IMG/VR virus record: IMGVR_UViG_3300009031_000221
Location: 128,001-192,000 of that record
Source: a virus
Taxonomy: Duplodnaviria; Caudoviricetes
Length of the DNA stretch: 64,000 nt
Direction: 5' to 3' (one strand)
Shown here: positions 11,022-29,329 of the stretch, one piece after another
Position numbering within the stretch: the stretch's first letter is position 1
Layout: the number at the start of each line of letters is the position of its first letter
Made by a program: the position numbers and the translations under genes
Notes under the pieces: generated by a model
Told to the model about the DNA's origin: nothing
The model's database searches: none
What the model saw: the letters and a program-made list of their open reading frames with translations, nothing else

Positions 11022-12776
11022 TTAGCCGTTGAAAACCTTGGAGACATCAGGTGCCGATTCCCACAAACGGGAGAGTTCGTCAACTTCACCGCCAGCCGAA
11101 GCCGTACGGGTCAATCCACCCACAGTGCGAACGCCGGTCGAAGCCTTGCGGGGCTGCGGACGCTGCGATGCAAGGCGCATGGCCTTCTTTGCAGCAGGGG
11201 AAGCATCCTCGTCTTCGCCTTCATCCTCATCCTCAGACTTCTTGGCCTTCTTGGATGCAACAGGAGCTTCCTCCTCTTCATCCTCATCCTCAGCCTCATC
11301 TTCCTCGGCGCCATCATCCTCATCCTCGTCCTCAGACTTCTTGGCCTTCTTGGATGCAACAGGAGCTTCCTCCTCTTCATCCTCATCCTCAGCCTTAGCG
11401 GACTTGCCGCCGAAGATCGATGCCAACAGCGCTTCGTCATCGTCGCCGAGAACGTCATCGCTACCGTCCGCGAGGCCCATCGGGTCTCCCGTCATGCCGA
11501 ACATACCGGCATCATCACCGCAAGCCTTCTTGCCTGCAGTAGGAGCATCCTCCTCATCTTCTTCATCCTCGGCCTCTGCCTTCTTCGCCTTCTTTCCGCC
11601 CTTCTTAGCTGCAACGGGAGCTTCCTCCTCATCTTCTTCAGCCTCAGCCTTCTTGGACGCAACAGGAGCTTCCTCTTCAGGTTCCGCCTTCTTGGCCTTG
11701 AGTGCCTTGAGCTTGGCAGCCTTCATGAAGGTAGCTTCCATCTCGGAAAGCATTGCAGCCTCAGCGGGATCAAGTCCAGCTACGGTTGTAACAGCCGCTA
11801 CGACAGGCTCAGGGGACAACGCATCAATAACTTCTTCCGAAGCCAGGATACCATCACGGTCAGTATCCAGGGCAGCGAACAGATCCTGCGATCCAACCCA
11901 CTCCGCCTGCATTACAAATCCGTCATTGTCCGTATCCATCGAAGCGAAGAACTTGCGTGCAGCCTTGCGAGCGGCAGCTTCCTTCTTTTCCTCGGGCTTG
12001 TCTTCGGGCTTGACTTCGGGTTCATCCTCGCCTTCGGCCTTCTTGGCTTCCTTGCGGGCTGCATCCTCATCCTTGGCCTTGGGGGCCAACGTCGGACCCT
12101 TGGGGTCATTCTGGTCAGCCTTCTTGAGGCTTTGTACCTTCTCGGTCAAAGCCGAAAGGGCACCCAGAACCTCGTCCATTTCAGACTTCTTTCCAGCATC
12201 AGGGGCTTCCTCAGCCAACATCATGTCCAGATCGTCATCATCCATATCGCCAAAGTCATTGGCAGGACCACCGAAATCATCAAAGTCGGGTTCGCCAAAA
12301 TCAGCCTGAGGAGCCATTTCCTCAGCCAAGAATCCTCCACCGATACGCTCCAATGTTGCATTGATGCGGGAATCCGACCAATCCATCATATCGAGCGCTT
12401 GATTTTCAACTGTATCGGATGAAGCCTTCTTGCCAAGCATGGCGCGAGCAATGCGAATGCACTTCTGTGCCTTGCGCTCCACGGCTGCACGCAAACTACG
12501 TGCTTCCTTGGGGACGCGGGGCTGCTCCTTGTGGGCAGGGTGATCCTGATCTTCCGTATCGTAGCCAGGAATGGCCGGGGGGTTACCCTGGGCATACGGG
12601 GGCTTCCGAACGTCCTCAGCCCATGCTGAAGGATCGCCTTTCTTGTAGGCCTCATAGGCAGGATCTGCCTGATGGGCGGGGTGGTCTTGATCCTCAGTAC
12701 CGTAACCGGGGATCTGGGGGGCGGCAGACGCCGAACGTCCTGCCGCCCACGTCATGCGATTCCTATTGGTGCTCAT
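11022..12776 (-). CDS. Capsid scaffolding protein (acidic, low complexity, EF-hand pair)
   Basis: Between protease and decoration/MCP; TGATG overlap with the protease stop and AGGAG SD; E/D/K/A-rich; ends WESAPDVSKVFNG. Confidence 0.75.
   Translation of the reverse strand: MSTNRNRMTWAAGRSASAAPQIPGYGTEDQDHPAHQADPAYEAYKKGDPSAWAEDVRKPPYAQGNPPAIPGYDTEDQDHPAHKEQPRVPKEARSLRAAVERKAQKCIRIARAMLGKKASSDTVENQALDMMDWSDSRINATLERIGGGFLAEEMAPQADFGEPDFDDFGGPANDFGDMDDDDLDMMLAEEAPDAGKKSEMDEVLGALSALTEKVQSLKKADQNDPKGPTLAPKAKDEDAARKEAKKAEGEDEPEVKPEDKPEEKKEAAARKAARKFFASMDTDNDGFVMQAEWVGSQDLFAALDTDRDGILASEEVIDALSPEPVVAAVTTVAGLDPAEAAMLSEMEATFMKAAKLKALKAKKAEPEEEAPVASKKAEAEEDEEEAPVAAKKGGKKAKKAEAEDEEDEEDAPTAGKKACGDDAGMFGMTGDPMGLADGSDDVLGDDDEALLASIFGGKSAKAEDEDEEEEAPVASKKAKKSEDEDEDDGAEEDEAEDEDEEEEAPVASKKAKKSEDEDEGEDEDASPAAKKAMRLASQRPQPRKASTGVRTVGGLTRTASAGGEVDELSRLWESAPDVSKVFNG
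11231..11395. repeat. 66-bp perfect direct repeat in scaffold gene
   Basis: 11231..11296 equals 11330..11395 (AEDEDEEEEAPVASKKAKKSE), offset 99 nt. Confidence 0.9.
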
Positions 12777-14299
12777 CACTTTTCTCCTCGCTGTGGCGAC
12801 TGCCTGGTATTTCCAGCCTTTCCCGAAGTACATCCCCGTGAAAGAAGTTTGCCAAGACGAATTAACGTCTTAGCCTCATCCATGTTGGGTTCGCGTCCCA
12901 TTGCCAGGCGGCAGGCATGAATGAAGGAATTAGCAGAACCATACCTATTGGAACCACCGACCTGCAGTGCAGTGCGATAAATTCCAACGGGGACAGTAAT
13001 GCCGATTTGCTGATTGAACACCGCCACGCGGTTGATCAGGTCAGCGTCAGATGATGCAGTACGGACAATATCGTCCAATCCTGCCTGATATGCTTTGCGT
13101 GCCATTGAGGCTTGCTTATTGAGCGTCTCGTTGGTGCTGCTATTTCCAGGGGCTGGCGGGGCCAAATCCTTCTGGAGACGATCCTGCACTCGAGTAATAA
13201 GATGGTTGTAAACCGCGTCCTCTACATCCTTGAATGGAGTGGGCGGCGCTACAGGTGCTGCCGGGGCTACTGGAGCCGGGGCCTCAGGGGCTCCGTCCTC
13301 ATCTTCCCATCCAGCAAAGAAATCATCGGATGCATCCACATTGATTCTGCCCGTACGTGCCGGGGGTCCAACACGGGATACTATCACCGCATCAACAGGG
13401 GTAGATGCCGCCTTGAGGCGATCATCCTTCGTCCACTGAGGAGGAGGAGTTGACAAAACCTTCTTAGCCTTCTTCGCAGTCTCAGGGCTAAACTCTAGAA
13501 CGTTCCGAAGCACTGCCCCAGTAAATGCAGGCGTGCCAACCCAGGATGCTTCAATAAACTGTACGCCGCCTGTTGGTCCTAATGACTCATGGCCACACAG
13601 TTCCGCAATACGATGCTTGTTGCCATTCTCGTCAAAGAACGTGTTACCCTTGGCATATTTGATGTGAGGGCACATCTCCGTTTCATCAGCAGCCCAATGT
13701 CCACACTTGGTGCAAATAGTCCCGTCAACAGTGCAGCCCATTGATAGGGTGCCCATTTTTCCGGACTCAATAGCCTTGACCAAATCTTCATGCTTGCGAT
13801 CCGTGGCAATCAGGATATCCACATAGATGGAATCCCCAATGTCACGTGCCACGGCATCAATGATTCTGCCCTTGGACAATTCTTCTACTTGGACGTGTTC
13901 AACGAAATTATGCCCGCCAACGAATGTTTGGTAGGAAGACATCAATACAGGGCGATTCCAACAATCCATGTTGTTATTGATGAATTGATCACTCGCAGGC
14001 TTAACACGGAAATCGCTAAACTTCCGATTAACCCGGAACCCATCCTCCATTACGGAGCCCGTTTTGATTCCCTGGGGTGAATAGGTATCTACCGACGCAA
14101 TAATTGTGGCATGCGTTAGGAGATAATTATTCGGATTGAATGTCTCACCGAAAAATTCAGATGCCCGATCTACAAGGGATCCGCTTAGATCCCCTTCAAC
14201 CTTGGCGTCTTTGCTTCCAGCTGTCCGGATGTTACTCCATTCAGTTTGGGAAACGTGTGGGCGAACTACCTGAGCACAGGCGTACTTCATGAATGCCAT
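12776..14299 (-). CDS. Prohead (capsid maturation) serine protease with Cys/His-rich insertion
   Basis: HK97-type protease motifs FVEHV, TLSMGC and FIEASWVGTPAF; CTKCGH...CPH...CGH insertion. Confidence 0.75.
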   Translation of the reverse strand: MAFMKYACAQVVRPHVSQTEWSNIRTAGSKDAKVEGDLSGSLVDRASEFFGETFNPNNYLLTHATIIASVDTYSPQGIKTGSVMEDGFRVNRKFSDFRVKPASDQFINNNMDCWNRPVLMSSYQTFVGGHNFVEHVQVEELSKGRIIDAVARDIGDSIYVDILIATDRKHEDLVKAIESGKMGTLSMGCTVDGTICTKCGHWAADETEMCPHIKYAKGNTFFDENGNKHRIAELCGHESLGPTGGVQFIEASWVGTPAFTGAVLRNVLEFSPETAKKAKKVLSTPPPQWTKDDRLKAASTPVDAVIVSRVGPPARTGRINVDASDDFFAGWEDEDGAPEAPAPVAPAAPVAPPTPFKDVEDAVYNHLITRVQDRLQKDLAPPAPGNSSTNETLNKQASMARKAYQAGLDDIVRTASSDADLINRVAVFNQQIGITVPVGIYRTALQVGGSNRYGSANSFIHACRLAMGREPNMDEAKTLIRLGKLLSRGCTSGKAGNTRQSPQRGEK

Positions 14300-14302
14300 G
14301 AT

Positions 14303-14938
14303 TCAGCCCTCCAATCCGATTTCATCGGTCTCAGGTTCCGAGTAATCTGAGTGCCCTATGATGTCACAGGGCTTGATCAAGAACAGGCACTCAGGGCAAG
14401 CTAGAAGCCGAACGTTTGCCCCGCCCTCTCGTTTGTACGAAGCAGGGCGCAGAAAAACAGTCTTGCAACGAGGGCAATTGAAATTGCCGCTATCGACTTC
14501 TTCCTGTGTTGCCTTGTGCTTCCGATCACGGGCTGCCCAGTACATCGCCTGTTTGACGAATGCCTGGGCAACCCGGTCGGAAGAACCTCTTTTAGGAAGC
14601 GGAGCTTGTGGGTAGGGGTCATTAGGCCCGCCATCTACAGGAACCGTTCCCGCACCACCAGGAATATTGTCATGGCCCATATTGGAAGGATTGTAATCGC
14701 CTGCTTGGTTGAAGTACTGCTGTACATCCTCAACAGGAACTCGTTCCGATCCATGGGGCCACTCAACATCAATCATGCCAATTGCGGGATAGACAGCCAT
14801 TACACGGCCGTTCAACCCTTCATTCCCGAGAACAAATGGATATACGATATCGCCAACAGCAAACTCGGAAGCCCGCTGCTGGTAATCGACGTACGCCGCT
14901 ATTTTGTTCCGTGAATTGGTCATGTATAATTGCCTCAA
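14303..14938 (-). CDS. Hypothetical virion-region protein (SH3-like N-term, C-terminal Zn ribbon)
   Basis: FAVGDIVYP...GRV..VYPAIGMIDVEW; CPRC...CPEC. Confidence 0.65.
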   Translation of the reverse strand: MRQLYMTNSRNKIAAYVDYQQRASEFAVGDIVYPFVLGNEGLNGRVMAVYPAIGMIDVEWPHGSERVPVEDVQQYFNQAGDYNPSNMGHDNIPGGAGTVPVDGGPNDPYPQAPLPKRGSSDRVAQAFVKQAMYWAARDRKHKATQEEVDSGNFNCPRCKTVFLRPASYKREGGANVRLLACPECLFLIKPCDIIGHSDYSEPETDEIGLEG

Positions 14939-15844
14939 TTAAGCCAACAGATCAAATCCGTGGGCCTTCTTGCCGCCTTCCTTGGCATCTTCCTTCTTCT
15001 TATCTACGTTCTTCTGGAACTGCGGAGGAACAACACCCTTCTTCGGGGGTTCTGCCTTGGGCTTGTCCTCGCCCTTATCCTCTTCACCCTTATCCTCGCC
15101 CTTGTCATCTTCCTTGCCCTTGAGGAAATCCGGCTTCTCGTCCTCGGACTTCTTTGCCACGATCTTGTTGGCAAGGGCTACCATCGAAGCAACCTTCGTT
15201 ACATCGTTGACATTGGCAAGGTGTGGCAGAATCGTAGCTACAGCCTTCAAGGTGCGATCAGCCTGATCCAAGCTAACGGTTCCCGTCTGCACGCCCATCT
15301 GCACGTCCATGACGCTATGTGCCAACTTGGCGACGGCCATCGGCAGATTGCCCTTGCCGCCCAAGTGTGCTACTGCGTTCTGAAGACGGCCACATGCCGT
15401 TGCAAGACGGGCATCAACTGCCTTCTTGCCAACTGCTGCATACTCGGCCTGCTTACCAACCTGAGGAGTCTGCTCCTCGAGGTTTGTCGTCATGCCAAGG
15501 TCTCCGTCCTGAACACGCTCGCGAAGCTCGCGATGCTCCTGCTGCGTAAATTCTGCCTTCATGTAGGGCTCGTCACTGTCACCCTCCAAAGGTCCGCCAT
15601 CCTCTTCACCGATGGTCTCTGGATCAAAACCTTGCTCTTGGTTCACATCCAATTCGGTAAGTGCCTTGCGATCCAATCCAGCCTGACGCTCTACAGCATC
15701 ACTGATTAGGTCACAACGATAAGCGAAGTCCATTGCGATTCGTTCCGGAACCCCAAGGGTGGTGAACTCTTCCTGCATAAGACTCGCGATACGGTCGAGG
15801 GCTGCCGTGACGGTCCTTGCGCCCTTTTTGGTCATATTTGCCAT
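14939..15844 (-). CDS. Hypothetical virion-region protein
   Basis: AGGAG SD before ATG 15844; late motif upstream; K/E-rich C-terminus. Confidence 0.65.
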   Translation of the reverse strand: MANMTKKGARTVTAALDRIASLMQEEFTTLGVPERIAMDFAYRCDLISDAVERQAGLDRKALTELDVNQEQGFDPETIGEEDGGPLEGDSDEPYMKAEFTQQEHRELRERVQDGDLGMTTNLEEQTPQVGKQAEYAAVGKKAVDARLATACGRLQNAVAHLGGKGNLPMAVAKLAHSVMDVQMGVQTGTVSLDQADRTLKAVATILPHLANVNDVTKVASMVALANKIVAKKSEDEKPDFLKGKEDDKGEDKGEEDKGEDKPKAEPPKKGVVPPQFQKNVDKKKEDAKEGGKKAHGFDLLA

Positions 15845-15919
15845 TTGATTGCTCCTGCGATATTGGCTAGGCCGACACGTCTGGGCGCAACAAGGCCCCA
15901 CGCTCTCTATGCCTGCATT

Positions 15920-15935
15920 ATAAGGACACTATCGA
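15920..15935 (-). promoter_or_regulatory. Putative late promoter
   Basis: TCGATA-gtgtcc-TTAT. Confidence 0.55.
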
Positions 15936-15970
15936 GGGAGATTATGGGGGTTAGCCATTATTTCCCTATT

Positions 15971-18900
15971 TCACCTCTGTTGTCTCATCCAGGTCATTCG
16001 TACTCGACCTTGATATTGTGAGGTTTTACCTGGAGAAGACCCTGAGGAATCTGCACCCCCCATTATCGCCCCCATACTCTCCATAAACTCATCTGGAGTC
16101 ATGTCCTTCATGCGCTCCCGAGTTTCTGGCTTTGCGTGCTCAAGAAAGTCCCTCATCAACTCGGCGGGGGATTTATCCTTGATTTTGTCTTTGTTGGCAG
16201 CGTGGAATTCCTCAATAGCGGATTTGTCTGCCGGGTGTACCTTCGGTATGGCAGGAGGCTCATCATCTTCAGGTGCTTCCTCAGGTTCTGCCTTCACGTA
16301 CTTCTTATCCAGTTCCCCAACATCCCCGGTTTCAATAACACGCCGCATCTGTACTACCGATGGGTCATCATCCGGTGGATCCCAACCTTCTGCTTTCATC
16401 GCTTCCATCTGGGCTTTCAGATATGCTACACGGGCTATTGGCCCCTTTGTATCCTTGCACGCCTGCATAGCGGCAACGTCACTTCCTGAATCCCTTAGGC
16501 ACTTCGTCATCTCATCGGCAGCCTTGATATATTCAGGGGAACTAGATGCCTTGTCATGAACACGGGCGTTCAATGCTTCCATCTCTTTGGGGCTAATCTT
16601 CTTGCGAGCCTTGGCACCGGATTCGGGCTTCGCTTCTTCACCCTTGTCCTCACCCTCTCCCCCTTCCGATATATCAAATCCGGCTTGTAGGGACGCATGA
16701 CTGGTAGTCATATTGTCAACAGCCATGTCGTTGAGGAAATTCTTGAGGACTTCCTTTGCTTCCTTGGACACGTCCCCACTATTGAGTGCCCGAAACATCG
16801 GATCTTCCTTGGCGAACCCGTGTACAACAGCGATGTCCTTATCCTTCATTGAATCAAGGGCTTTCCTAATGCGTTCTCGTGAATCTGGGCTATAAAAGTT
16901 GTCAGGACTGCCCAACAATAAATCGGCTGAACCCTTGTCTATCATAGCCTTGGCTAATGCTACGTACTGCCGGGAAGGGCTAGGCTGTAGGGGTTTCCCA
17001 TCAACCATAATGGGTTTATCCCCATTGGCAATTGCCGCTAGATTCAATCCACTTAGGACACTTTTCAATTCCGAATGTAGAGGGGAACCCGGTTTGGCCT
17101 TGGCTATCTCCGCTACAACATGCTGTGTTGCCGCATCCCGTTCCTTTGAATCTATATCACCACTCATGTATTGCTTGTATGCAGTGGTAGCACGGGCATT
17201 CAACTGATCTGGACTCTTCGGTTCATTATTCGCATCCTGTCCCCCAATGTTCACGGGACCAGAACGAACTACGGGAGGCTTCTTATCTTTGGGGGCCTTT
17301 TCCGCCGGCGTTGCTGGAGGCGTAGCCGCAGGAGGCGTTGGCGCCGCTGGCGCTGCCGCAGGAGGCGTTGGCGCTGCCGCAGGAGGCGTTGGCGCCGCTG
17401 GCGCTGCTGCAGGCGGGGCGGGAACCTCAGGGGCGGGAGTTGCCGCCGGTGCTTCTGTAGATCCTGGCGCCTTCGCAAGATCCCGGATGCCGGAAAGGGA
17501 ATCGTTGCGAAGTTTTTCAGCCGCATCCATCATAGTTTGTGATTCAGCCTTCGCCTTGTCACTCTTAGAGTTTTCCATTGCCTTAGATGCGAGCCGCAAA
17601 TCCGTAGTAGATTTGTTGAAATCCTTTACGGCTTTATCCAATGCGGGCTTATGCTTAGCGAGTTCGGGATCGGACTCATACATAGCATCAAGATCCTTCA
17701 TGATGCCCCGTATATTCTTGCTATTCCCTTCCTCTAAAGCCTTTGCCAAATTGTCAATATGCTCCCCATGCTTCTTAGCAGGATCCTCTGTGGGTGCCTT
17801 CGCACCGCCCTCGCCTTTGTCCTCGCCGGTACCCTCAGCAGTCTCACCCTTGGCATAAGCCTCTGCCTGTTCCTTTTCCTCAAATGTCTCCCGGTCACCA
17901 TCGGGGTTCTTAGCAGCCCAACCTTTATCGGTTTGCCACACTTCCCCAGGTTTATGTTCAGGTTCATCAGTCTTGGGCGTATCAGGGCCTTCTGGACCCT
18001 TTGGACCTTCTGGCCCCTTTGGACCTGTGGGTCCAGGAGGTGCTGGGGGCACTGCAGACCCTTTACTCAACACCCACTGATATGCTACACGCTTGTAATT
18101 CAAAGATAGATCAGGATCATCCTCAGCCCCACCATCAGCTACGGATGGTTTATCCGGGTCTACTCGGTGATTCCGAAGATCCTGACGTGGGGGCTTCGAC
18201 TTTGGGGCGGGACGGATATTGGCATTCGCCGCATCATCCTCCCTCTCCGCATGCGTCTTGGTAGCTACACGTGCCATCCCCGTTGCAGGATCCAGTGATT
18301 CTAAGCACTGATCACATACACCCGTCACAGACAATCGATCCGAATGCAACCACTTAGGGCATCGGCACTGAATCACATTCCCACAGTAATGACATTCCAA
18401 TCGGAAATGGCCAATACCCGACGCATGAATAGCCTTCAGCGTATGCCCTTTACGAATGAATTGAGCCAACAAGGCCCTGTTAATATCAAATGCGGCTTTG
18501 GAGAAACCCTTCTTTTCAAAGGACTCCGATACATTTCCATCCTTGAGGTATTCATCCTCAAGCCCCGGCACAAGATATTGGCTTCGCAACGTGGCAGATT
18601 CGTGTCCTACAGCTTCAGCCGTTTCATCCAATGCCGTCTTAAACTCACCCTTGAGTTTCTTTTCACGTTCCTTCTTATCGGTTGGGAGCTTTCCCCCCTT
18701 GGAACGGACGGCCTTGAGGCGTTCCTGCATTTCCGTATTAGCGTGAAACCCTCGAATGTCCTTGGCGGATATATCGAAAGGCTTCAGGTAAACGTTCACA
18801 TCCTCCGCAGTGATACGGCAATCCTCACCCTCACATAGTGGGGAGTCCTCGCCCTTACCCTTCGTGGCATCCTTCAAGGCTTTGACTAATACTGCGTCTT

Positions 18901-21367
18901 TCACTTCCTTAACATGATCCACACCCGACTTGCCAACATACTTAACGGTTGCCTTGCCCCCAGAAAACGTAACATGCTTCTTACGCCAACCGGTAACCCC
19001 GAAATGCCCTTCCTTGGCGGATTCATCATTGCCAACACGCTCGAAGGTTTCATCCATCAACCCGACAGCCAATGCCGTGTACCGAATCTTTTCATCATCA
19101 GACTTCAGGTCTTTGCGATACTGCGCCCGTAGTTTATCGATATGCCCTCGGAGCTTTTCAATTTGCCCCGCCTTGTCCTTGTTACGATCCGCAATCTGAC
19201 GGTCACTATACTCATAGACGATCATATCTTCGCCGTCTTTGGTCTTGACCTTCTTCTTGTCCTGGTATTTGGCAGCTACTCGACGTGCAGCCATCAATCG
19301 AATGTATTCCGGAGTGTGCCCCACCAAACCTTCCTTACCATCAGCTAATAGCTCAATATCCCCCGCAATTGGGGGCTTTGGGGGTGCCTTGTCTTCCCGA
19401 ATCTTGAATAGGTTGACAACTTGTTTCTTTCCGGTAGGAGTTTCGATTAGAACTGTTGGGTCGCCCTTCTCGCTAACCCCGAAGTCCCTGATTAGCCCAT
19501 GCTTATTCTTGTATTTTCCGAACAGAACAGGATCCCCTTCGTTGACATTGAATACTTTTGCGATATGCACAGGCTGTTCCATGTATCGATTCGCAACTCG
19601 AACTTCTATGGACAATGCAGTCTTCCCCCTACGAGCCATCTCCACATGAATTCGGTTTTCCCACCTTGAAGCGGAAGTAGCCAGTACGGGGTCATCAAGC
19701 AATACCGTCCGTGCGGTATCCATTAATGTACGAATCTCCGCACCCTTGAGTTCGTATTTACGAATCTGTCCGGGCATATCGATAACTTTGCCCGGTTGCT
19801 CCAGGACATCTACAAATGCCTCGCCCTCTTCAGCACCCATCTGAACCGTGATTTCCCGAACGCGATCCTTCTGGGCGGGTGTCAAGAACCCCAAGCGCCT
19901 GCCCACGGGCATACCCAAATCCATCAAGTCAAACAGGAATGCCAAATCCCCCTTTCGTTCCGCCCAGTTTGCCAATGCCTCACGGAAGGGTTTATCCGAC
20001 TGTGCAATGGACTTGACAACATCCAGCAATCCTAGTTTGTCCATTTCCAACAATGCACGTTTGCCAACCCCTGTTTCATAGAACAAGGTGATGATCATAT
20101 TAGACAAATGCCCGCCAGGAATATTGCGGAGCTTGTCCTTGTTCTTCTTGATGGATGCTTCAACCTCGGGATCGATCTTGAATCCATATTTCAACAGGAA
20201 CTTGATAGCCCGAATCATCCGGCTGGGGTCATCCGAGAATGTCTGGTCGGGGCTAGAAGGGCAACGCATTACCCCTTCCTGAAGATCCTTCAGGCCACAA
20301 CCCGTCAAGTCCAGGATTTCCGCTTTATCCGGCCCATCCGCCAAGTCATGCATTCTCCACAATAGAGTGTTGAATGTGAATTCACGACGAAATGTGTCAT
20401 CCTTGATATTGGCTGGGGCGACTGCATCAGGCTTATAGCCTCCCGCATAGGATTCAGTACGGGCATTTGCAATCTCAATGACCTCACCCGATAGATTCTG
20501 TCCCCCGACTTCCCAATCACCTTTGATGGTGAGGATTGCCACCCCATAGTTATTGGTTGTCAAGTTCGTGTCAGTTGGGATTGCCCGCTGCAACTGCTTG
20601 GCAAACCATTCCGAATCCTTACCCTTTAGTGCTACCGAATCAATGACGACATCGATGTCCTTGATAGGTTCCTTGATGATGAAATTACGTACAGCCCCAC
20701 CAACAACGTAGACATGCTTGGATACGCCCAGCTTTGTAGCCACGTTGGACAGGAACTTCATTAGTTCTACAGATACCTGATGTTGCATGGCGTCTACAAT
20801 ACGGGAGGCCATTCGGGTAGGATTCCCAAATTCCACTACATGAACCTTGGGCAAACCCCATATCTCGATGCCATCGAACGTCCAATCCCCCTGCGGAAGG
20901 ATCCCATCAAATTCGGTTTCCAGGCCGTCTAGGTATGCCAAGGTGACGTGCGGGGAGTAGACCAGGGGAAAGTAGTCATCTACATCAAATCCGGCGCCCA
21001 TGAGGGCATCCCGGAGTTTCCACCGCAATGCAGCCAAGTCATGGCTGTACCGAACTCGCATAATCGCGACTCGCCGTTCCTTGTCGGGTTGTGCAAAATA
21101 GTCTGGCCCATATACATGGGCTTTCACACCACCCCGAATTTCAGCCAATACACGAGATGAAATATCCAGGAATTCGGATTCCCGTTCCTTGGATACGGTG
21201 CCTACATACAGGAATGTTGTATGTGGGACGGATTGATCCTCGGACCCAAGATCAGGAAACTGATCCCCCAATTCTTTGGATAGAGGGATGAAGAACCCTA
21301 CACCTGTGCCGTCACCGGTTTTCTTACCGTCAGACGCACCCGCGTATTTATTCCAAGCTGTGATCAC
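15971..21367 (-). CDS. Multidomain polyprotein: 2H phosphoesterase, CCA/poly(A)-type nucleotidyltransferase, SH3-like domain, DNA topoisomerase IB, Zn finger, Pro/Ala-rich tail
   Basis: 2H motifs PHTT and PHVT. NTase motifs VGGAVRN..DID, DDTFRREFTFN and DDPSRMIRA. Topo IB motifs ERVGN, GKSG, KDIRGFHAN, GH and SQYL. Zn finger CHYC..C.C...CDQC. Confidence 0.9.
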   Translation of the reverse strand: MITAWNKYAGASDGKKTGDGTGVGFFIPLSKELGDQFPDLGSEDQSVPHTTFLYVGTVSKERESEFLDISSRVLAEIRGGVKAHVYGPDYFAQPDKERRVAIMRVRYSHDLAALRWKLRDALMGAGFDVDDYFPLVYSPHVTLAYLDGLETEFDGILPQGDWTFDGIEIWGLPKVHVVEFGNPTRMASRIVDAMQHQVSVELMKFLSNVATKLGVSKHVYVVGGAVRNFIIKEPIKDIDVVIDSVALKGKDSEWFAKQLQRAIPTDTNLTTNNYGVAILTIKGDWEVGGQNLSGEVIEIANARTESYAGGYKPDAVAPANIKDDTFRREFTFNTLLWRMHDLADGPDKAEILDLTGCGLKDLQEGVMRCPSSPDQTFSDDPSRMIRAIKFLLKYGFKIDPEVEASIKKNKDKLRNIPGGHLSNMIITLFYETGVGKRALLEMDKLGLLDVVKSIAQSDKPFREALANWAERKGDLAFLFDLMDLGMPVGRRLGFLTPAQKDRVREITVQMGAEEGEAFVDVLEQPGKVIDMPGQIRKYELKGAEIRTLMDTARTVLLDDPVLATSASRWENRIHVEMARRGKTALSIEVRVANRYMEQPVHIAKVFNVNEGDPVLFGKYKNKHGLIRDFGVSEKGDPTVLIETPTGKKQVVNLFKIREDKAPPKPPIAGDIELLADGKEGLVGHTPEYIRLMAARRVAAKYQDKKKVKTKDGEDMIVYEYSDRQIADRNKDKAGQIEKLRGHIDKLRAQYRKDLKSDDEKIRYTALAVGLMDETFERVGNDESAKEGHFGVTGWRKKHVTFSGGKATVKYVGKSGVDHVKEVKDAVLVKALKDATKGKGEDSPLCEGEDCRITAEDVNVYLKPFDISAKDIRGFHANTEMQERLKAVRSKGGKLPTDKKEREKKLKGEFKTALDETAEAVGHESATLRSQYLVPGLEDEYLKDGNVSESFEKKGFSKAAFDINRALLAQFIRKGHTLKAIHASGIGHFRLECHYCGNVIQCRCPKWLHSDRLSVTGVCDQCLESLDPATGMARVATKTHAEREDDAANANIRPAPKSKPPRQDLRNHRVDPDKPSVADGGAEDDPDLSLNYKRVAYQWVLSKGSAVPPAPPGPTGPKGPEGPKGPEGPDTPKTDEPEHKPGEVWQTDKGWAAKNPDGDRETFEEKEQAEAYAKGETAEGTGEDKGEGGAKAPTEDPAKKHGEHIDNLAKALEEGNSKNIRGIMKDLDAMYESDPELAKHKPALDKAVKDFNKSTTDLRLASKAMENSKSDKAKAESQTMMDAAEKLRNDSLSGIRDLAKAPGSTEAPAATPAPEVPAPPAAAPAAPTPPAAAPTPPAAAPAAPTPPAATPPATPAEKAPKDKKPPVVRSGPVNIGGQDANNEPKSPDQLNARATTAYKQYMSGDIDSKERDAATQHVVAEIAKAKPGSPLHSELKSVLSGLNLAAIANGDKPIMVDGKPLQPSPSRQYVALAKAMIDKGSADLLLGSPDNFYSPDSRERIRKALDSMKDKDIAVVHGFAKEDPMFRALNSGDVSKEAKEVLKNFLNDMAVDNMTTSHASLQAGFDISEGGEGEDKGEEAKPESGAKARKKISPKEMEALNARVHDKASSSPEYIKAADEMTKCLRDSGSDVAAMQACKDTKGPIARVAYLKAQMEAMKAEGWDPPDDDPSVVQMRRVIETGDVGELDKKYVKAEPEEAPEDDEPPAIPKVHPADKSAIEEFHAANKDKIKDKSPAELMRDFLEHAKPETRERMKDMTPDEFMESMGAIMGGADSSGSSPGKTSQYQGRVRMTWMRQQR
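17325..17405. repeat. Tandem 30/21/30-nt repeats encoding a TPPAA(APA) linker
   Basis: gccgcaggaggcgttggcg(ccgctggcg)ct x3. Confidence 0.85.
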
Positions 21368-21391
21368 AGGAGACCTCCCTAGGGGAGTCCA

Positions 21392-21407
21392 ATAGACTTA
21401 GAACCGA
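21392..21407 (-). promoter_or_regulatory. Putative late promoter for the polyprotein
   Basis: TCGGTT-ctaagt-CTAT, 25 nt upstream of ATG 21367. Confidence 0.6.
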
Positions 21408-21411
21408 AGTT

Positions 21412-23106
21412 CTAGAACCGTTCCGTGCCCTCGGCAGGCGGCTTCTTGTACTTCAGGCCCAAGTTCCCCGCGACCTTCTCTGTGATCTCGGTCGATTCAA
21501 CCAGAGCTTCACCAACACGGCTGTATGCCGCACGGACAACTTCATTCATCGAGGAGTCACTCAATGTAAACAAGTCGTTCTTCAACCCTTCGGCTGCCGT
21601 CACAGGATCGATGTTCAGCAGATCCAAAATGACATCGATTGGAATCGAACCCTTCTGGTACAGGCTGAATAGTGCATCATAGGTGTCCGCCGTATCCCGA
21701 AGCGCCAACCGTGTAAACGTCAGCTTCGGAACAATGACCTCAAGGATCCCATCTTCATCTTCTTCAACGAACCCCATGCGAGCGCACATTGGTTTGAAGA
21801 AGTATTCCTCAACTAGATCCTGCAGCATTTCGCGAAGTAGCATAAATCTAGTGTTGATAACCTCGAGGTGAATACGATCGCCGGAGTATGATGATTCACC
21901 GGATAGCAAACTCTCCGTCACACCTAGACCGGCATACAACTGCCTATCCGTCAAGTCATAAACCCATGACCAGTCAGGCAACCGTTGATCCGCACCCATT
22001 TCCTCCCAGTTGACCTGGAAGTTGGTGATGATCGAGTAATCAGGGTCTTGCAATGCAAGGTCAACCTGTTCACGCAAAGCGTCCGTCTGCTCATCAGACA
22101 TGTCCTCAGCATAGATCAATCGATAGGGCGTCATGTGACGCGACGCAATGCTAGTCAAAGACTGGCGAACCTTGTCCCGGAATACCAATGTCCGGAGGCA
22201 TCGCTGAAGGATGGACTTGCCACGCGGCTCATAAGGGCTCCGCTTGCGAGCCATGAAGTGACAGAAACTGCCTGCTTCGGGATCAGTATTCAGTGGGACA
22301 TTCCGCCCTTCAGCTACAGCCTCCACAATTTCAATCGGCATCGAGTTGGCAATACGCTGTGCTTGAGCATCCCCTTGACGGGCGCGCTCAATAATAGCCT
22401 TGGTCTTGGAGTCGGGCACTAGCTCAATGAGCTTCTCGTCCGTGAATGGGAATGACTCAACACGCACTTGCTCAGGGGGCAAGCATCGAATAGCTGTCCA
22501 ACCCTTGTAATTCTGATTGAGCCACTTGATCTCGCGTTCATCTGCATCCTCGAAGGGTTCCCAACGCTCGAGGAATTTCCCGTCAGCTGTGATTTCCCGA
22601 ATGGCTTGTTCCCGTACTTCACGGGGCATATCAGGATTGGTGTCCTCGATGAACAGCGCAACCTCACCAATCAGGTTCCACTCGTGAGTGACTTCCATGA
22701 GGCGACGTAGGAGCCCTACCTTCTTTGCCCACTTGGTGCAGAATCGCATTGACTTCTCAGCCAATTCCCGATTCCGTGCATCAGGCATGCCAACCCGAAC
22801 CTTGGACAACGGAAGCTCTGTGTGCAAGTCAATCGCCTGCCCAACAAAGGGTTCGTAGTCATAGAAGAATCGGTAGTAGTTATGTTGTTCGTCAACAGAC
22901 TGCGGTAGCTCGAGGAAGTCCGTCGATAGTTCAGGTGAGTAGAAATTACCGCCTGAACCAGCCTGGACACCGCCTGCCATCGGGAATGCGACTTTTGCCC
23001 GCATCGCTGTGGTGATGACTTTGCCGGGTTTGCCGACTGAAACACCAGGGCGTTGAGGGACAACCGCTACTTTGACGGTTTCATCAGGATTATTCTTGCG
23101 AGCCAT
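21412..23106 (-). CDS. Portal protein
   Basis: About 565 aa, downstream of terminase; YDYEPFVGQAIDLH, HFMARKRSPYEPRGKSILQRCLRTL. Confidence 0.8.
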   Translation of the reverse strand: MARKNNPDETVKVAVVPQRPGVSVGKPGKVITTAMRAKVAFPMAGGVQAGSGGNFYSPELSTDFLELPQSVDEQHNYYRFFYDYEPFVGQAIDLHTELPLSKVRVGMPDARNRELAEKSMRFCTKWAKKVGLLRRLMEVTHEWNLIGEVALFIEDTNPDMPREVREQAIREITADGKFLERWEPFEDADEREIKWLNQNYKGWTAIRCLPPEQVRVESFPFTDEKLIELVPDSKTKAIIERARQGDAQAQRIANSMPIEIVEAVAEGRNVPLNTDPEAGSFCHFMARKRSPYEPRGKSILQRCLRTLVFRDKVRQSLTSIASRHMTPYRLIYAEDMSDEQTDALREQVDLALQDPDYSIITNFQVNWEEMGADQRLPDWSWVYDLTDRQLYAGLGVTESLLSGESSYSGDRIHLEVINTRFMLLREMLQDLVEEYFFKPMCARMGFVEEDEDGILEVIVPKLTFTRLALRDTADTYDALFSLYQKGSIPIDVILDLLNIDPVTAAEGLKNDLFTLSDSSMNEVVRAAYSRVGEALVESTEITEKVAGNLGLKYKKPPAEGTERF

Positions 23107-23524
23107 AAATGCCTCTTGCTGCAATCAGCTTCTTCTTAGCTTCATCGGCAGTTCGTTTTGCTTCCCGCGATGCACGGAATGCTTTCAATCGATCGGAGTC
23201 CGAATATTCGGAACCCACACGTTCATTCAAAGGAACCACAGGTCTAATAGATGCAATCCTACCTAGGCATTGATCAATGATCCCCTGCGTATCCTTAGCA
23301 CGGCGCAATCCCGATGATTCCGATCCATTACGGCGCCCTTCCGAAGCCATTTTCGAACATATATCCGCAGCGTGGCGAAGGGACTTTTCGGCATCCCGCA
23401 AATGCTTTCGCATTTCGATTTCTGCCAACCGAATCTGGTTCTCGTGTTGTTCCTGCTGCCTAGTCTGTTGATCAGCTTTCGCTTTATCTTGTGCTTCTTG
23501 ACGTGATGTCACTTTGCACCCCAT
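23090..23524 (-). CDS. Hypothetical coiled-coil protein
   Basis: Overlapping ORF between terminase and portal. Confidence 0.55.
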   Translation of the reverse strand: MGCKVTSRQEAQDKAKADQQTRQQEQHENQIRLAEIEMRKHLRDAEKSLRHAADICSKMASEGRRNGSESSGLRRAKDTQGIIDQCLGRIASIRPVVPLNERVGSEYSDSDRLKAFRASREAKRTADEAKKKLIAARGIYGSQE

Positions 23525-23770: not shown

Positions 23771-25732
23771 TTACCTACCTCGGGTATGCCCTCTTAGGCT
23801 TCGTGATTGTTGCCGGTCAGGGCTACTACCTGACCTTCGTGCTTGCATGGCCAATCTAACATTGTCACGAGATGAACCTTGAACACCACCCGCAGAACCT
23901 CGATGAGTTCCTGTCCGAACACCGGAAATCAATTTCGGTTTGGTCATATGATCCGAAGCCAACCAAATCATACGAACTAATGCGTCAGGGCGGTCGTCAT
24001 GTTTACCTTCAATATTGGGGGCTTCTACCTTGATGACATACTTGGATTTCTTTTCTTCTTGAAGCTCCATCATTTCCTCAATGTAAGCACAATGTTCCTT
24101 CCCATCCTCAATAGGCCAATCGTAAAGGACAAGGCGCTTGTCCCACATCATATCCTTGAAATTCTTGTAGACTTCCGAGTTGATGACATCCGTAAAATGC
24201 GTCCGCTGGATCTGATGCAATCCTCGCTTTGCCAATGCCTGCTCGAATGGAATTCCGGCGTGCTGGTCAATTACTCCATGGGCAATAAAGTACTTCTTGG
24301 ACAACCGTTGAATCCAATCCGCTACTTCCTCAAAATTGAGGGTGTCCACATTTTCATATTTGCCCTCGCCCGCCTTCATCTGGTCAATGAGGTCCAAAAC
24401 GATAACAGGCCCCCGTTCCGAGGATTCCAAATGTCCAATAGCAACAGCCGTCGCGTCCCCCTTTAGGGCCAAGTCGATTGCGATGAAGTGCGGACGGCGA
24501 GCGGGGATTGCTTGTCCAGGCCTGTGTGTCGGATCAATACAATCAAACAGGTCTTGTGGACGATCCAGATAGCCTCGAGTACGGTCGGTGAACCTACCTC
24601 CAAACTCCGTGAAGAATGACGTGGCATCCTTCATATATTCACTTTCAAAAGCCGAAGCCGGAAGGGTTGGGTTCACTTCCCAGGTTGGCGCCTCGATACA
24701 CAACATATTTCCAGACCCACGGCCACCCTTCATGCCCTGCTGAAAGAGCTTGTAGAACATCCCCTGCTTGCCCAAGGGGGATGAAATGGCAATGATACGG
24801 GCTTCTACGTCCCCAATAGGTCGTTTGTAGTTCTTGGGATCCTTATGCGAGAAGGTCGCCATAGACGGCGTAACCGCCTTGTAAACAGATTCAGCGGAAC
24901 TAGATCCCGATTCCTCTGTAAAGTGCGCCATCTCGTCAAGGATAACCACGATGTTACCAGCACCACGAAGGCCTTGGGCAATACATGACATGAAGGTAAC
25001 CTTGAGGGTCGCCTTTGCCGTCGCATCGTCAACATATCTGCCATACCGTTCCACATCTTTAGGCGTCTGGAATCGGGCGTATGTCTGTGTATTATTCGCG
25101 GTATAGGGGGAGAAGAATCCGCAATTACGGAAGTGGCTCGATACCTCCTGGTAAAGAAGTCCTGCCTGATCCTTTCCCGTTGCGACAGAAATGATCTGGA
25201 TGTTGTTACCAGGGGGCAACCCGTAGTACTCCTGAGGGTTCCCCTTCAGAATCAACTTGTACGTTTCATAGCCCGCGATAATAGCCGCGATGTAGGTTTT
25301 GCCGGAACGACGTCCAATGGACAGAACCAATTCTCGTCGCTCGTGGTCTACCTCAGCGATGTTCGCCCGACCTTCTGAATACAGAAACCGTAGATATCCG
25401 GCCTCCGTCATATACCTAGGATTGGATCGATCCCAATCCGTTATGGGCACGCGATTCTTGTAATGAAGGTAATCTAGACTGTTTTCGTCTAGATCCGTAA
25501 TAATATCATAATCAGGATGATCTAGTGGAATAGGATCATCCAATGAAACCCCATAAGAGTTGTCATCTAGCTTAAGACCGTAATGGGCCTTGAGGATGAT
25601 TTTCTGTACGGGGAAAAGGGATAGCCCTAGCCCCCAATCAGGAGACTCCGCAAACTCAATTACGTTGGCAGGTTCCCGCTTGACATTGTTAGTCGCTTGG
25701 CTGACGCCAAGAATAAGCTCGGAGAAACTCAA
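23771..25732 (-). CDS. terL: Terminase large subunit
   Basis: Walker A IGRRSGKT, Walker B VILDEMAHF, coupling motif ISSP, nuclease AIDLALKGD...HDDRPD. Confidence 0.92.
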   Translation of the reverse strand: MSFSELILGVSQATNNVKREPANVIEFAESPDWGLGLSLFPVQKIILKAHYGLKLDDNSYGVSLDDPIPLDHPDYDIITDLDENSLDYLHYKNRVPITDWDRSNPRYMTEAGYLRFLYSEGRANIAEVDHERRELVLSIGRRSGKTYIAAIIAGYETYKLILKGNPQEYYGLPPGNNIQIISVATGKDQAGLLYQEVSSHFRNCGFFSPYTANNTQTYARFQTPKDVERYGRYVDDATAKATLKVTFMSCIAQGLRGAGNIVVILDEMAHFTEESGSSSAESVYKAVTPSMATFSHKDPKNYKRPIGDVEARIIAISSPLGKQGMFYKLFQQGMKGGRGSGNMLCIEAPTWEVNPTLPASAFESEYMKDATSFFTEFGGRFTDRTRGYLDRPQDLFDCIDPTHRPGQAIPARRPHFIAIDLALKGDATAVAIGHLESSERGPVIVLDLIDQMKAGEGKYENVDTLNFEEVADWIQRLSKKYFIAHGVIDQHAGIPFEQALAKRGLHQIQRTHFTDVINSEVYKNFKDMMWDKRLVLYDWPIEDGKEHCAYIEEMMELQEEKKSKYVIKVEAPNIEGKHDDRPDALVRMIWLASDHMTKPKLISGVRTGTHRGSAGGVQGSSRDNVRLAMQARRSGSSPDRQQSRSLRGHTRGR

Positions 25733-26966: not shown

Positions 26967-29329
26967 TCCACCTCCATCCCACCAAACGTCAAGTCCCCAA
27001 GAATCTCGATGTGGTGTTCATCCGCAACCCGAACGTCTTCGATACCCTCATTACGAAGGTCGAATTCCTTAGGGTTGAACAAGGAAGCAGTGACTTCCGA
27101 TTCATCCGCATTAGCCAGTTCAATGGCACGTGCCTGATACTTCTTGATGTTCTTTACAGGAAGCTCCTCCCTAGTAGCGAGCTTCTTGTTGTACTGCGAA
27201 CACACACCATCCGCATTGGCGAATGTGCATCCCGCACAACGGGACATTGCCAGGACATGCTTGATACCATTGGCACGATGCTTCAATGCGCCTTCTTCGC
27301 ATCCCGTGGTCCCATTCTTGGAAGCGTATGCCGCAGCATCTACATACAAATGCCCCGACAACCCCTCATGCGTTGCCCGAAGATCCTTAATGTCCTCTCG
27401 TGCGGCCTTACGGATTGGTAGAGGGAACTTGACCTTGAGCATTTCGCTCAATTCCTGCCCCATAGAACCTTCAGCCATCTTCTGCCGCGCCCAACGGCGT
27501 AATGCACGGAATTCATGCTCCGTAATATTGGGAGTAACCTTGGACACCTGTTGGATTGCCGTATACTGAGTATCAGCATACTTCTTAGCCGGAACGGCCT
27601 CAGGCATCTTCTTCCGATTGTCAGGCAACTTATCCAGGCTATTTGCGGCCTTCTTTGCTGCCACCCGCTGCTCAATGGCATCATCACTATTGGCAGCTTC
27701 TTGCGCCGCCGCCCGTTGCTTGATAGATGCAATACTAGCCTTGGAGAACTCGGCCTGAGCCACAGGGCGATATGCAGTATAGGCATGACCCATGTACGAC
27801 TTGATATCCGGGACTTCAACCGAAGCCTGACGATGTTGTCGTGCCATCTGGACAGCCGCAGCAATCAAGCGCTCCAATTCTGCCACAGGACGATTCATAG
27901 ACTCAATCCGCCCACGTTCCTCGGCAGTCAAAAGCCCTGACTTCACAACCCGTCCCAGGTAAGCGCTGAACTTCCGCTTGATGTTCGCCTCAACCCCCGC
28001 CTGTAGCTCATCCAACGAACGCAATGCCGCCTTGCGGGCGTGCATCGCTGTATCGGGCAATGTCGTACCGTCTCCATCGTAAACGCGATATTCGCCCGTT
28101 GCCGTAACCAGGGCGGCACCTACTTCTAACAGTTCTTCTGCAGAAGCTCCGGAAGCATTCAGCTGAATAGCATCGGACTGTGTGATTTTCCCCGCCTGAA
28201 CCCACCGTGCAATCCGAACCAATGCAGCCTTTCGCTTGGTTTCCAAAGATTGCTCTTCCGCTGTCTTCGGCAAAGGCGCCTTGATTACGGGAGCCTTGAG
28301 CGCAGCTTGTGCCTCGGCGTGGGATGCAATGACAGGCTTAACGACTGGCTGGAATTGTTCTGGGACAGAAGCCTTGGTCGGGCCGACCCGGAATGCTCGA
28401 CGCAGAATGTCCTTAGCATTACCTACGGATGCAACCTTATATCCCGATGCGGTCAATCGTGGTGCGTAATATTCTAGAGCTTCCTTCCACGGAATCTCGG
28501 ATACCATCACCATTCCGAGTTTATCGGCTACAGCTTGATCCTCCGTAATAACGTAATGTGCATCATGTGCAGACTTATGGATCTTGTCCAACCACTTGCC
28601 ATTCTTGATACCCGGAAATGCATTGGCACGAATGAATACCTTGCCAATCAACCCATGCTCTTCCTTGATGATCCGCATAGCCGAAGCCGCACGGTAGGAT
28701 TCATGCCCTAATGTTTCCACCAATTCAGCATGGATGCTATTAATGCTTTCCCCGTAATGTGCTCGACGCAAGGCCCGAAGAACCGCGTGTTTTACTTCCT
28801 CCGCAGTCTTCCCACTTTTCGCAGGAGCCTTCAAGGAGGCTTCGTAATCCGCCCTTTCCTTGTCAGTATTAGGAACAATGGTCAAACCATTGGTAGGGCG
28901 ATTCCGACCCCAGGCTTTCTCCAATTGTGGGATAGAATTGAGCTTCTTCTTGTTGTTGGGGAGACGCTCGTGATCGGGCTCCTGAGTTGGATCCATCCAT
29001 TGAAGATCGATAATCGAGGAATCCCTATCCAAGCCGCCTTCTTCCGCTGATAGCATGGCGGTCATGTTAATGCCCAAGCCACTTTCGCTATCATCTGTCA
29101 AGTCCTGAAAACTGAGGTCTTGGCCCGCATCTACAACTAGACCATCCGGCAATCCGGACAACCCTCGAGTAGTAGGTAGACGACCTCCATCCTCAGGCCC
29201 TTGATTATCGGGTTCATCAAACTGAAACCCATCCAATCCAAAATTGTTGCCTGTCGTGAATGTAAACTCATCAGCAGGGAGTGCCGATTCGCCCAGAAAT
29301 TCAGTCCAGTCATTAGTTTTCTTCATCAT
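26963..29329 (-). CDS. Large hypothetical virion-region protein (788 aa)
   Basis: Acidic N-terminus, many KxA motifs, C-terminal Cys cluster (C..C...C). Confidence 0.7.
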   Translation of the reverse strand: MMKKTNDWTEFLGESALPADEFTFTTGNNFGLDGFQFDEPDNQGPEDGGRLPTTRGLSGLPDGLVVDAGQDLSFQDLTDDSESGLGINMTAMLSAEEGGLDRDSSIIDLQWMDPTQEPDHERLPNNKKKLNSIPQLEKAWGRNRPTNGLTIVPNTDKERADYEASLKAPAKSGKTAEEVKHAVLRALRRAHYGESINSIHAELVETLGHESYRAASAMRIIKEEHGLIGKVFIRANAFPGIKNGKWLDKIHKSAHDAHYVITEDQAVADKLGMVMVSEIPWKEALEYYAPRLTASGYKVASVGNAKDILRRAFRVGPTKASVPEQFQPVVKPVIASHAEAQAALKAPVIKAPLPKTAEEQSLETKRKAALVRIARWVQAGKITQSDAIQLNASGASAEELLEVGAALVTATGEYRVYDGDGTTLPDTAMHARKAALRSLDELQAGVEANIKRKFSAYLGRVVKSGLLTAEERGRIESMNRPVAELERLIAAAVQMARQHRQASVEVPDIKSYMGHAYTAYRPVAQAEFSKASIASIKQRAAAQEAANSDDAIEQRVAAKKAANSLDKLPDNRKKMPEAVPAKKYADTQYTAIQQVSKVTPNITEHEFRALRRWARQKMAEGSMGQELSEMLKVKFPLPIRKAAREDIKDLRATHEGLSGHLYVDAAAYASKNGTTGCEEGALKHRANGIKHVLAMSRCAGCTFANADGVCSQYNKKLATREELPVKNIKKYQARAIELANADESEVTASLFNPKEFDLRNEGIEDVRVADEHHIEILGDLTFGGMEVE

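Follow-up and report, generated by a model that had tools for sequence, protein, structure and literature searches.

A 1798-residue multi-enzyme protein in the head-gene locus of a huge groundwater phage, a candidate polyvalent cargo protein

Within a 64,000-nucleotide stretch of an uncultivated groundwater phage (bases 128001-192000 of the 536,053-bp virus record IMGVR_UViG_3300009031_000221; hereafter the window), one minus-strand open reading frame (ORF) at 15971..21367 encodes a protein of 1798 amino acids (aa; P0001), in which a 2H phosphoesterase, a class II nucleotidyltransferase (NTase) of the CCA/poly(A) type and a type IB topoisomerase (topo IB) are joined in one polypeptide to an SH3-like barrel, a Zn-ribbon-like insert and a conserved helical domain near the C-terminus, referred to here as domain F. 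This multi-enzyme ORF is a genuine single gene, and it lies among the head genes of the phage. We read its product as a polyvalent head-associated cargo protein that would deliver tRNA 3'-end repair or maturation together with DNA relaxation at infection, a reading to which we give a probability of roughly 0.6; the protein is probably carried in the capsid. In concept it belongs to the polyvalent proteins of phages and conjugative elements (Iyer, Burroughs, Anand, de Souza and Aravind 2017, PMC5512222), which were predicted to be packaged and injected and with which it shares the assembly of many unrelated catalytic domains in one giant polypeptide, portal and terminase genes as neighbours, and an extreme shuffling of domains. 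The statement in the sequence-only reading that no fusion of this kind has been described was therefore too strong, as the concept is that of the polyvalent proteins and the exact order 2H-NTase-barrel-topo IB-F recurs in some 17-20 cluster representatives of the family.

The gene is a single open frame that opens with GTG, preceded at a distance of 6 nt by a Shine-Dalgarno sequence, GGAGG (21374..21378), and its start lies 44 nt beyond the portal stop. Four groundwater-metagenome runs from one study contain every sampled word of the gene, which is identical in the contigs of all four, although these runs may include the source sample and so give no independent support. In each of the four per-run assemblies the segment 17378-21700, which holds all of the enzyme joints, lies on one contig with 0 differences. 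The sole break of the per-run contigs falls, in all four assemblies, at 17354-17378, inside Pro/Ala repeat DNA near aa 1330, through which the frame remains open; the occurrence of topo IB and domain F in one ORF in 131 proteins supports the linkage over this repeat. Given single contigs over the enzyme joints in four runs and the same order in relatives, the long ORF is no artefact, and a mis-assembly of separate genes is rejected. The copy number of the repeat itself (17327-17407) may be uncertain, as the assemblies break there. The late promoter that had been proposed 25 nt upstream of the gene fared less well: the class-2 late-promoter pattern is unmatched in 21368-21411 with 1 mismatch allowed, and over the whole window, at up to one mismatch, it is not commoner than in shuffled sequence (29 vs 32.9).

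Domain searches bear out the three enzymes of the sequence-only reading, whose nucleotide ranges agree with ours to about 20 aa. The topo IB catalytic module (18506..19264, aa 702-954) matches Topoisom_I PF01028 over aa 727-926 (E 1.2e-25, 90.6 bits against a cut-off of 23.7), and this is the only PF01028 match in the 536-kb genome. The R-K-R-H-Y set recognised earlier at about 19260-18520 is confirmed in that R777, K813, R872, H922 and Y931 align with R137, K174, R239, N280 and Y289 of Deinococcus radiodurans TopIB (2f4q); among 110 homologues the catalytic R and K are found in every one, the H in 99 and the Y in 98, with alignment gaps accounting for the remainder. The alignment to 2f4q begins at residue 76 of that structure, and what lies upstream in our protein is a short helix tag, described below, and the barrel. 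The 2H module (20813..21349, aa 7-185) carries both of the HxT motifs noticed at about 21320-20830, H49-T-T (H49-T51) and H140-V-T (H140-T142), each invariant in 33 of 33 homologous modules. By itself it scores just below the Pfam cut-off for PF13563 (aa 46-151, E 2.3e-5, 24.9 bits against 27) and below that of NCBIfam TIGR02258 (22.7 bits against 65.7), and homologous modules do pass the former, P0040 for example at 45 bits. A profile built from 25 homologous 2H modules reaches LigT/ThpR-type structures (2fyh, 1vdx, 1iuh and 5h7e, E 2e-4 to 9e-4) and none of Acb1. On these profile matches the module is LigT/ThpR-like, of the RNA 2',3'-cyclic phosphodiesterase / 2'-5' ligase type, and the Acb1-like function raised in the sequence-only reading is disfavoured.

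The NTase (19598..20788, aa 194-590) comprises a head, a neck and a divergent body and tail. Its head, which had been placed at about 20780-19640, matches PolyA_pol PF01743 over aa 219-368 (E 2.4e-15, 57.4 bits against a cut-off of 23), again as the only such match in the genome; a weak PolyA_pol_RNAbd match follows at aa 395-451, and PHROGs labels the middle part of the protein as a tRNA nucleotidyltransferase (3e-27). The motifs read GGAVRN (223-228), DID (237-239), RRE (327-329) and DDPSR (379-383), and their G, G, R, D, D, R, R, D and R positions are conserved in 47 of 47 homologous modules. The RRE and DDxxR readings that had earlier been given as the reason for an unclear specificity are indeed present, and they are family-wide, E329 of RRE occurring in 45 of the 47 modules and D379 of DDxxR in 44; N228 of GGxxRN is a family-wide variant too. 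Since DDxxR is moreover found in the aligned Thermotoga maritima chain 3h37, these variants are no argument for inactivity; what stands of the earlier caution is the ambiguity of specificity, for the module scores about equally with CCA-adding, A-adding and PcnB models. In at least eight relatives (P0010, P0012, P0028, P0029, P0034, P0035, P0038 and P0053) a LAGLIDADG intein of about 460 aa interrupts the NTase immediately behind RREFTFN, where P0001 has aa 333-335, which fits a functionally important site; the NTase of the protein in the window is free of one. Across the 33 2H, 47 NTase and 110 topo IB modules, which come from homologues only 40-70% identical, the catalytic residues are invariant or nearly so, and all three catalytic sets of the 1798-aa protein are intact.

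A word-seeded search returned 123 large relatives of 1000-3100 aa, on contigs of up to 618 kb. At the nucleotide level, megablast against 50,697 phage records gave 0 matches for the gene, which finds its matches at the protein level only. Mapped onto P0001, the relatives have in common the 2H segment (aa 7-185) in 32 cases, the NTase segment (aa 194-590) in 54, the topo IB segment (mapped at aa 693-954) in 110, a conserved segment at aa 1028-1180 in 60-78 and domain F (aa 1367-1700) in about 60, and the barrel segment (aa 590-660) recurs alone, often at the very N-terminus. Least variable across the family are topo IB and domain F; the remaining enzyme modules may be exchanged, divided among ORFs of their own or broken by inteins. 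The module order of P0001 is repeated in P0002-P0006, and among the 32 relatives with a 2H module most have it beside the NTase. Further modules found in relatives include RNA ligase PF09414, tRNA_lig_CPD, PAP2, PF10307, NUDIX, GNAT, ART-PolyVal PF18760, PARP-like, ChaC/GGACT, InPase PF18823 and DUF5661. Splitting takes several forms: locus L006 has a free-standing NTase of 254 aa and three more ORFs ahead of a 2833-aa protein, L007 a free-standing 2H gene of 212 aa, and L008 a 3032-aa protein followed by a 276-aa ORF and then a topo IB protein of 1194 aa, while in the nearest GenBank phage, LR745208.1, whose portal is 62% identical, topo IB stands alone as a 508-aa ORF.

The surroundings of the gene are those of a classical head module, with the portal (21412..23124; phrog_16240, E 9.7e-29, and a weak Portal_Mu match) immediately upstream and a prohead protease of 507 aa (12776..14299; phrog_18299, E 1.1e-13) on the other side. 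These PHROG matches bear out the position between portal and protease that had been assigned from the letters alone; the same slot is that of the MuF/gp7-type minor head proteins of smaller phages. Beyond the portal lies the large terminase TerL (23771-25732), from which it is separated by two small ORFs. Between the cargo gene and the protease are two ORFs of 320 and 211 aa (14939-15901 and 14303-14938), which have no Pfam or PHROG match and are without an assigned function, and past the protease follow a scaffold-like protein with EF-hands (11022-12833; Pfam EF-hand_6, E 2.6e-6, and EF-hand_1, E 4.3e-6), an ORF of 234 aa and the HK97-type major capsid protein (MCP, 9187-10062), all on the minus strand. 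In four relatives (L005-L008) the order TerL, two small ORFs, portal, cargo ORF(s), two small ORFs, protease, scaffold, decoration, MCP is kept. A slot that stays constant while its content is shuffled, as in these four, is the signature of polyvalent proteins. Some side observations on these neighbours may be recorded. ORFs of similar size stand at the place of the 320- and 211-aa ORFs in L001 and L005-L008 and are candidate head-assembly or adaptor proteins; the protease contains a long Pro/Ala linker as well as a Cys cluster (GCTVDGTICTKCGHW...MCPH), and no sequence relative of it was found in the PDB; and inteins or LAGLIDADG inserts occur in other head genes of relatives, namely the protease-position ORF of L007 (17606-20473) and the terminase and portal ORFs of L008 (462-3731 and 5714-8965).

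The C-terminal third of the protein had been described as a long Pro/Ala/Lys/Glu tail, a description that holds for only part of it. A variable low-complexity linker (17270..18070, aa 1100-1366), with collagen-like GPxGP, acidic and Gly-rich, helical and Pro/Ala repeat stretches, gives way to domain F (16268..17269, aa 1367-1700), a conserved domain that is predicted to fold, and this in turn to an acidic C-terminal tail (15974..16267, aa 1701-1798) that is variable in the mapping of relatives. The model of domain F is all-helical (predicted local distance difference test, pLDDT, 88.5; predicted template-modelling score, pTM, 0.83). It has no significant match in PDB, BFVD, AFDB clusters, ESM Atlas or VIA wide, the best VIA Z of 7.1 being within the noise for helical proteins, and a feature search of ESM Atlas likewise gave no usable match. 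A profile search of 1.84 billion proteins placed domain F in 199 cluster representatives. No recognised module ever follows it in these, the median distance from its end to the C-terminus is 57 aa, and 131 of 198 also have topo IB. On this distribution we consider it the best candidate for an anchor to capsid or portal. A predicted complex of portal and domain F reached an ipSAE of 0.36 (runs 0.18, 0.36 and 0.36) vs 0.00 for the best control, with a partner pLDDT of at least 73 and contacts that agree to at least 90% between runs. The prediction tool grades this as weak support. Of 80 solved complexes 58 pass the ipSAE mark, as do 2 of 110 mismatched pairs, with 7 of the 80 solved complexes and both of the passing mismatches at or below 0.60; these calibration counts hold roughly only, own alignments having been supplied.

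The joints of the protein carry a short recurrent motif, R-V-A-x-R/K-Y/W, which is modelled as a short helix with moderate confidence. A motif scan finds it as RVANRY at the NTase/barrel joint (19583..19600, aa 590-595) and as RVAAKY directly before topo IB (19265..19282, aa 696-701); a third copy, KRVAYQW at aa 1093, closes a conserved acidic stretch (18071..18172, aa 1066-1099) that ends in DLSLNYKRVAYQW and is a candidate processing or docking site. This stretch, with its DLSLNYKRVA end, is present in 89 of 250 family proteins, after which similarity is lost completely. The 2H/NTase joint has a degenerate form, where P0015 and P0037 have RVASRF and KLAHRH. The loose motif occurs 356 times in 121 family proteins vs 52 ± 7 in shuffles. 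Genome-wide, 17 strict copies of the tag, R-V-A-x-R-Y/W, are found in 686 greedy ORFs vs 0.8 expected (at most 5 in any of 300 shuffles), and the strict motif comes out on top of a set of 480 order-permuted controls (median 1). Of 211 strict copies in 241 family proteins, 0 lie in a recognised domain core and 65 stand directly before topo IB (binomial p 5e-38, a count made with trimmed module edges and on homologues that are not independent).

Outside the family, about a dozen unrelated proteins of the genome (window 29329-30000, minus strand; loci L009, L010, L012-L016, L018, L020 and L021) carry the tag, among them a UvrD-like helicase, a SWIM-finger protein, a Dps-like protein and several small proteins; PHROG and Pfam assign no function to most of them. 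Most of the copies in the genome lie close to a terminus, no more than 18 residues from the C-terminal end or 10 from the N-terminal end; in an RNB RNase with a double-stranded RNA-binding domain the copy is internal, at residue 55. The free-standing 2H ORF of L007 ends in a tag and the ORF preceding it starts with one. As an aside, the helicase of L009 (record 15402-20048, plus strand; 1548 aa), which has the tag at its end, contains an intein-like insert (a weak Intein_splicing match).

Two smaller elements complete the protein. The SH3-like barrel of the sequence-only reading (19382..19555, aa 605-662) is supported by a model folded with a 26-sequence alignment, in which five strands are predicted at pLDDT 81-90 and which resembles Tudor and KOW domains in Foldseek (6hq9, TM 0.79 by target, E 3e-3); it is a mobile module of about 65 aa. 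The Zn finger proposed earlier corresponds to a Cys-rich, Zn-ribbon-like insert at 18305..18394 (aa 992-1021; CxxC, CxC, CxxC), whose two CxxC pairs bear it out and which is present in only about one third of the relatives.

It is reasonable to postulate, from this arrangement, a sequence of events in which the 1798-aa protein would be made together with the head proteins, be loaded into the procapsid through domain F and/or the tags, perhaps be cut at its joints by the prohead protease, and enter the host along with the DNA. There, the 2H and NTase modules would together act on tRNAs that are damaged or immature, opening 2',3'-cyclic phosphate ends and rebuilding CCA, and topo IB would relieve the torsional stress of the very long genome, either as it enters or shortly afterwards, or else during packaging. 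It is the pairing of 2H with NTase, together with the ligase, phosphatase and CPD modules of relatives, that points to the healing of 2',3'-cyclic phosphate ends and the rebuilding of tRNA 3' ends. The genome itself offers substrates. ARAGORN predicts 68 tRNA genes in the 536 kb, at record positions 208343-259393 and 483473-483562, of which some 22 encode CCA and some 46, about two thirds, do not; as the genome has a sole CCA-type NTase, the 2H/NTase chemistry would be just as well used in maturing the tRNAs that the phage itself encodes. Among these genes we noted one tRNA with a UUA anticodon (ochre-suppressor type) and one odd prediction with a 4-base anticodon (record 213498-213586).

Several observations weigh against this cargo reading. 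We infer packaging, prohead-protease cleavage and late expression; the relatives are all uncultured, with no virion proteome for any of them, and the gene was found in no RNA run searched. Neither its fold nor its sequence ties domain F to MuF/gp7 or to another head protein that is known (for MuF PF04233 the 1798-aa protein has no Pfam match at E up to 1), and its predicted complex with the portal can be taken as a hint only. Phage G gp15 and Tunturi_5 gp8, which are encoded by the genes after the portals of those phages, have no similarity to P0001 or its modules. The tag could address a target other than the capsid, as its carriers include a UvrD-like helicase and an RNase II-like protein. 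Finally, the NTase lies far below every NCBIfam equivalog cut-off (best, TIGR02692, 76.7 bits against 438.8; PcnB, 75.4 against 305.65), and whether it adds CCA, CC, A or poly(A) is not readable from its sequence.

A more general proposal, which we advance tentatively and hold to be rather less probable than the cargo reading itself, is that domain F and the tag form a cargo-loading system that addresses swappable enzymes into the capsid, the tags at the joints serving also as sites of protease processing or docking. Topo IB would then be the commonest enzyme so delivered, the others being modules for tRNA/RNA end repair or for the destruction of nucleotide signals, and each virion would bring a pre-made kit for DNA relaxation and RNA repair, along with tagged helicase, Dps-like and other proteins.

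Of the alternatives to a cargo protein, the one that survives best, though we think it unlikely, is that the product is an unpackaged, cytoplasmic multi-enzyme of late (or middle) expression whose place in the head locus reflects co-regulation only. Its NTase and 2H would mature or repair the phage tRNAs, and its topo IB would serve replication, transcription or packaging of the 536-kb genome. Such a role would suit a phage with 68 tRNA genes, about 46 of them without encoded CCA, and one CCA-type enzyme; free-standing CCA enzymes are common in jumbo phages (PMC7824862), tblastn finds matches in phage G, Lak phages and others, and packaging is, after all, what we infer. However, in every relative examined the slot between portal and protease stays the same and it is the enzymes in it that are shuffled, and for a soluble enzyme there is no ready explanation of a conserved C-terminal domain that is not enzymatic, nor of tags at the termini. 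The predicted portal-F complex lends some weak support in the same direction, and tRNA maturation is needed early, when a protein made late in the cytoplasm could not supply it.

We regard as improbable a further alternative that concerns the chemistry, in which the 2H domain, like Acb1 or the viral 2',5'-phosphodiesterases, would destroy the cyclic oligonucleotide or 2'-5' oligoadenylate signals of immunity, and the NTase modifies RNA otherwise than by tRNA repair, through poly(A) tailing or the marking of host RNA. In its favour, Iyer et al. (2017, PMC5512222) suggested such an anti-signalling role for polyvalent-protein 2H domains, the scores of PcnB-type models on the NTase are close to those of CCA models, and the NTase has a divergent body and tail. 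Against it, the 2H profile matches the LigT/ThpR type and not Acb1, 2H sits next to the NTase in most of the relatives that have it, and the RNA ligase, tRNA-ligase CPD, PAP2 and HAD-type modules of the family are a typical set for RNA end healing and sealing. Last, that the long ORF is an artefact of mis-assembly or sequencing error is an idea to which we give almost no credence: the separate topo IB ORF after the portal of LR745208.1 and the stop of the per-run contigs inside the Pro/Ala repeat would favour it, but the enzyme joints lie undivided on single contigs in four runs, the frame is open across the repeat over which topo IB and domain F are linked in other proteins, an identical order of modules within a single ORF is found in some 20 independent cluster representatives, and the relative P0004 is seen on 16-19 contigs.

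Compared with the polyvalent proteins, the present family has its own repertoire and its own constant part. The polyvalent markers ART-PolyVal and InPase occur in homologues and not in P0001, in which Pfam detects no MuF, MPTase, LPD, helicase or methylase domain. Unlike in the polyvalent proteins, the repertoire here has at its centre topo IB, an NTase of the CCA type, RNA ligase and modules for RNA end healing, whereas in the earlier survey (PMC5512222) topoisomerase appears only in the reference list and the 2H domains are stated never to associate with RNA ligases; unlike them also, the constant part is the C-terminal helical domain F with the helix tag. It is domain F, the tag and the topo IB/CCA-NTase/RNA-ligase repertoire that are new with respect to polyvalent proteins. 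The topo IB module is of the same core family as the poxvirus and bacterial enzymes (vaccinia Top1, D. radiodurans TopIB 2f4q and mimivirus TopIB) and has the complete R-K-R-H-Y set, but differs from them in being a module of a 1798-aa protein in which the usual N-terminal domain is undetected and the core is preceded by barrel and tag. Vaccinia topo IB is encapsidated and aids early transcription, and the encapsidated poxvirus enzyme is thus a functional precedent for a virion-borne topo IB. Our literature searches returned no report of a topo IB as a phage virion or virion-locus protein and no such architecture.

The NTase has its head and neck motifs in common with class II CCA-adding enzymes and poly(A) polymerase I, and departs from the characterised class II enzymes in its GGxxRN, RRE and DDxxR variants, its divergent body and tail and its scores far below the equivalog cut-offs. 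E. coli Cca is an NTase-HD protein for CCA addition and repair, and the NCBIfam model NF008137 bears the name 'multifunctional CCA addition/repair protein'; the likeness lies in an NTase fused to an enzyme acting on 2',3'-cyclic phosphate, the partner here being 2H and not HD. As for loading, the capsid targeting sequences (CTS) of T4 internal proteins and Alt and the cargo-loading peptides of encapsulins are short peptides at protein ends by which unrelated proteins reach an HK97-fold shell, and in phiKZ/SPN3US-like giant phages the head cargo (ejection proteins) is trimmed by the prohead protease. Our tag resembles such peptides in standing at the N- or C-termini of unrelated proteins, a Dps-like protein included, and also marks the fusion joints of the cargo protein. 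Its sequence differs from that of the T4 CTS, and no LxE or S/A/G-x-E cleavage logic is evident.

If the protein is packaged, these huge phages would bring a topoisomerase and a kit for tRNA 3'-end repair or maturation into the host before any gene expression, a kit that would be a pre-emptive answer both to tRNA-targeting defences and to the torsion of ejecting half a megabase of DNA. The family would then be a natural catalogue of enzymes worth delivering, with RNA ligase, PAP2, NUDIX, GNAT, ART, PARP-like, ChaC/GGACT and InPase modules among them. The tag and the anchor domain, for their part, could explain how large capsids are loaded with cargo, and could be reused in engineered capsids.

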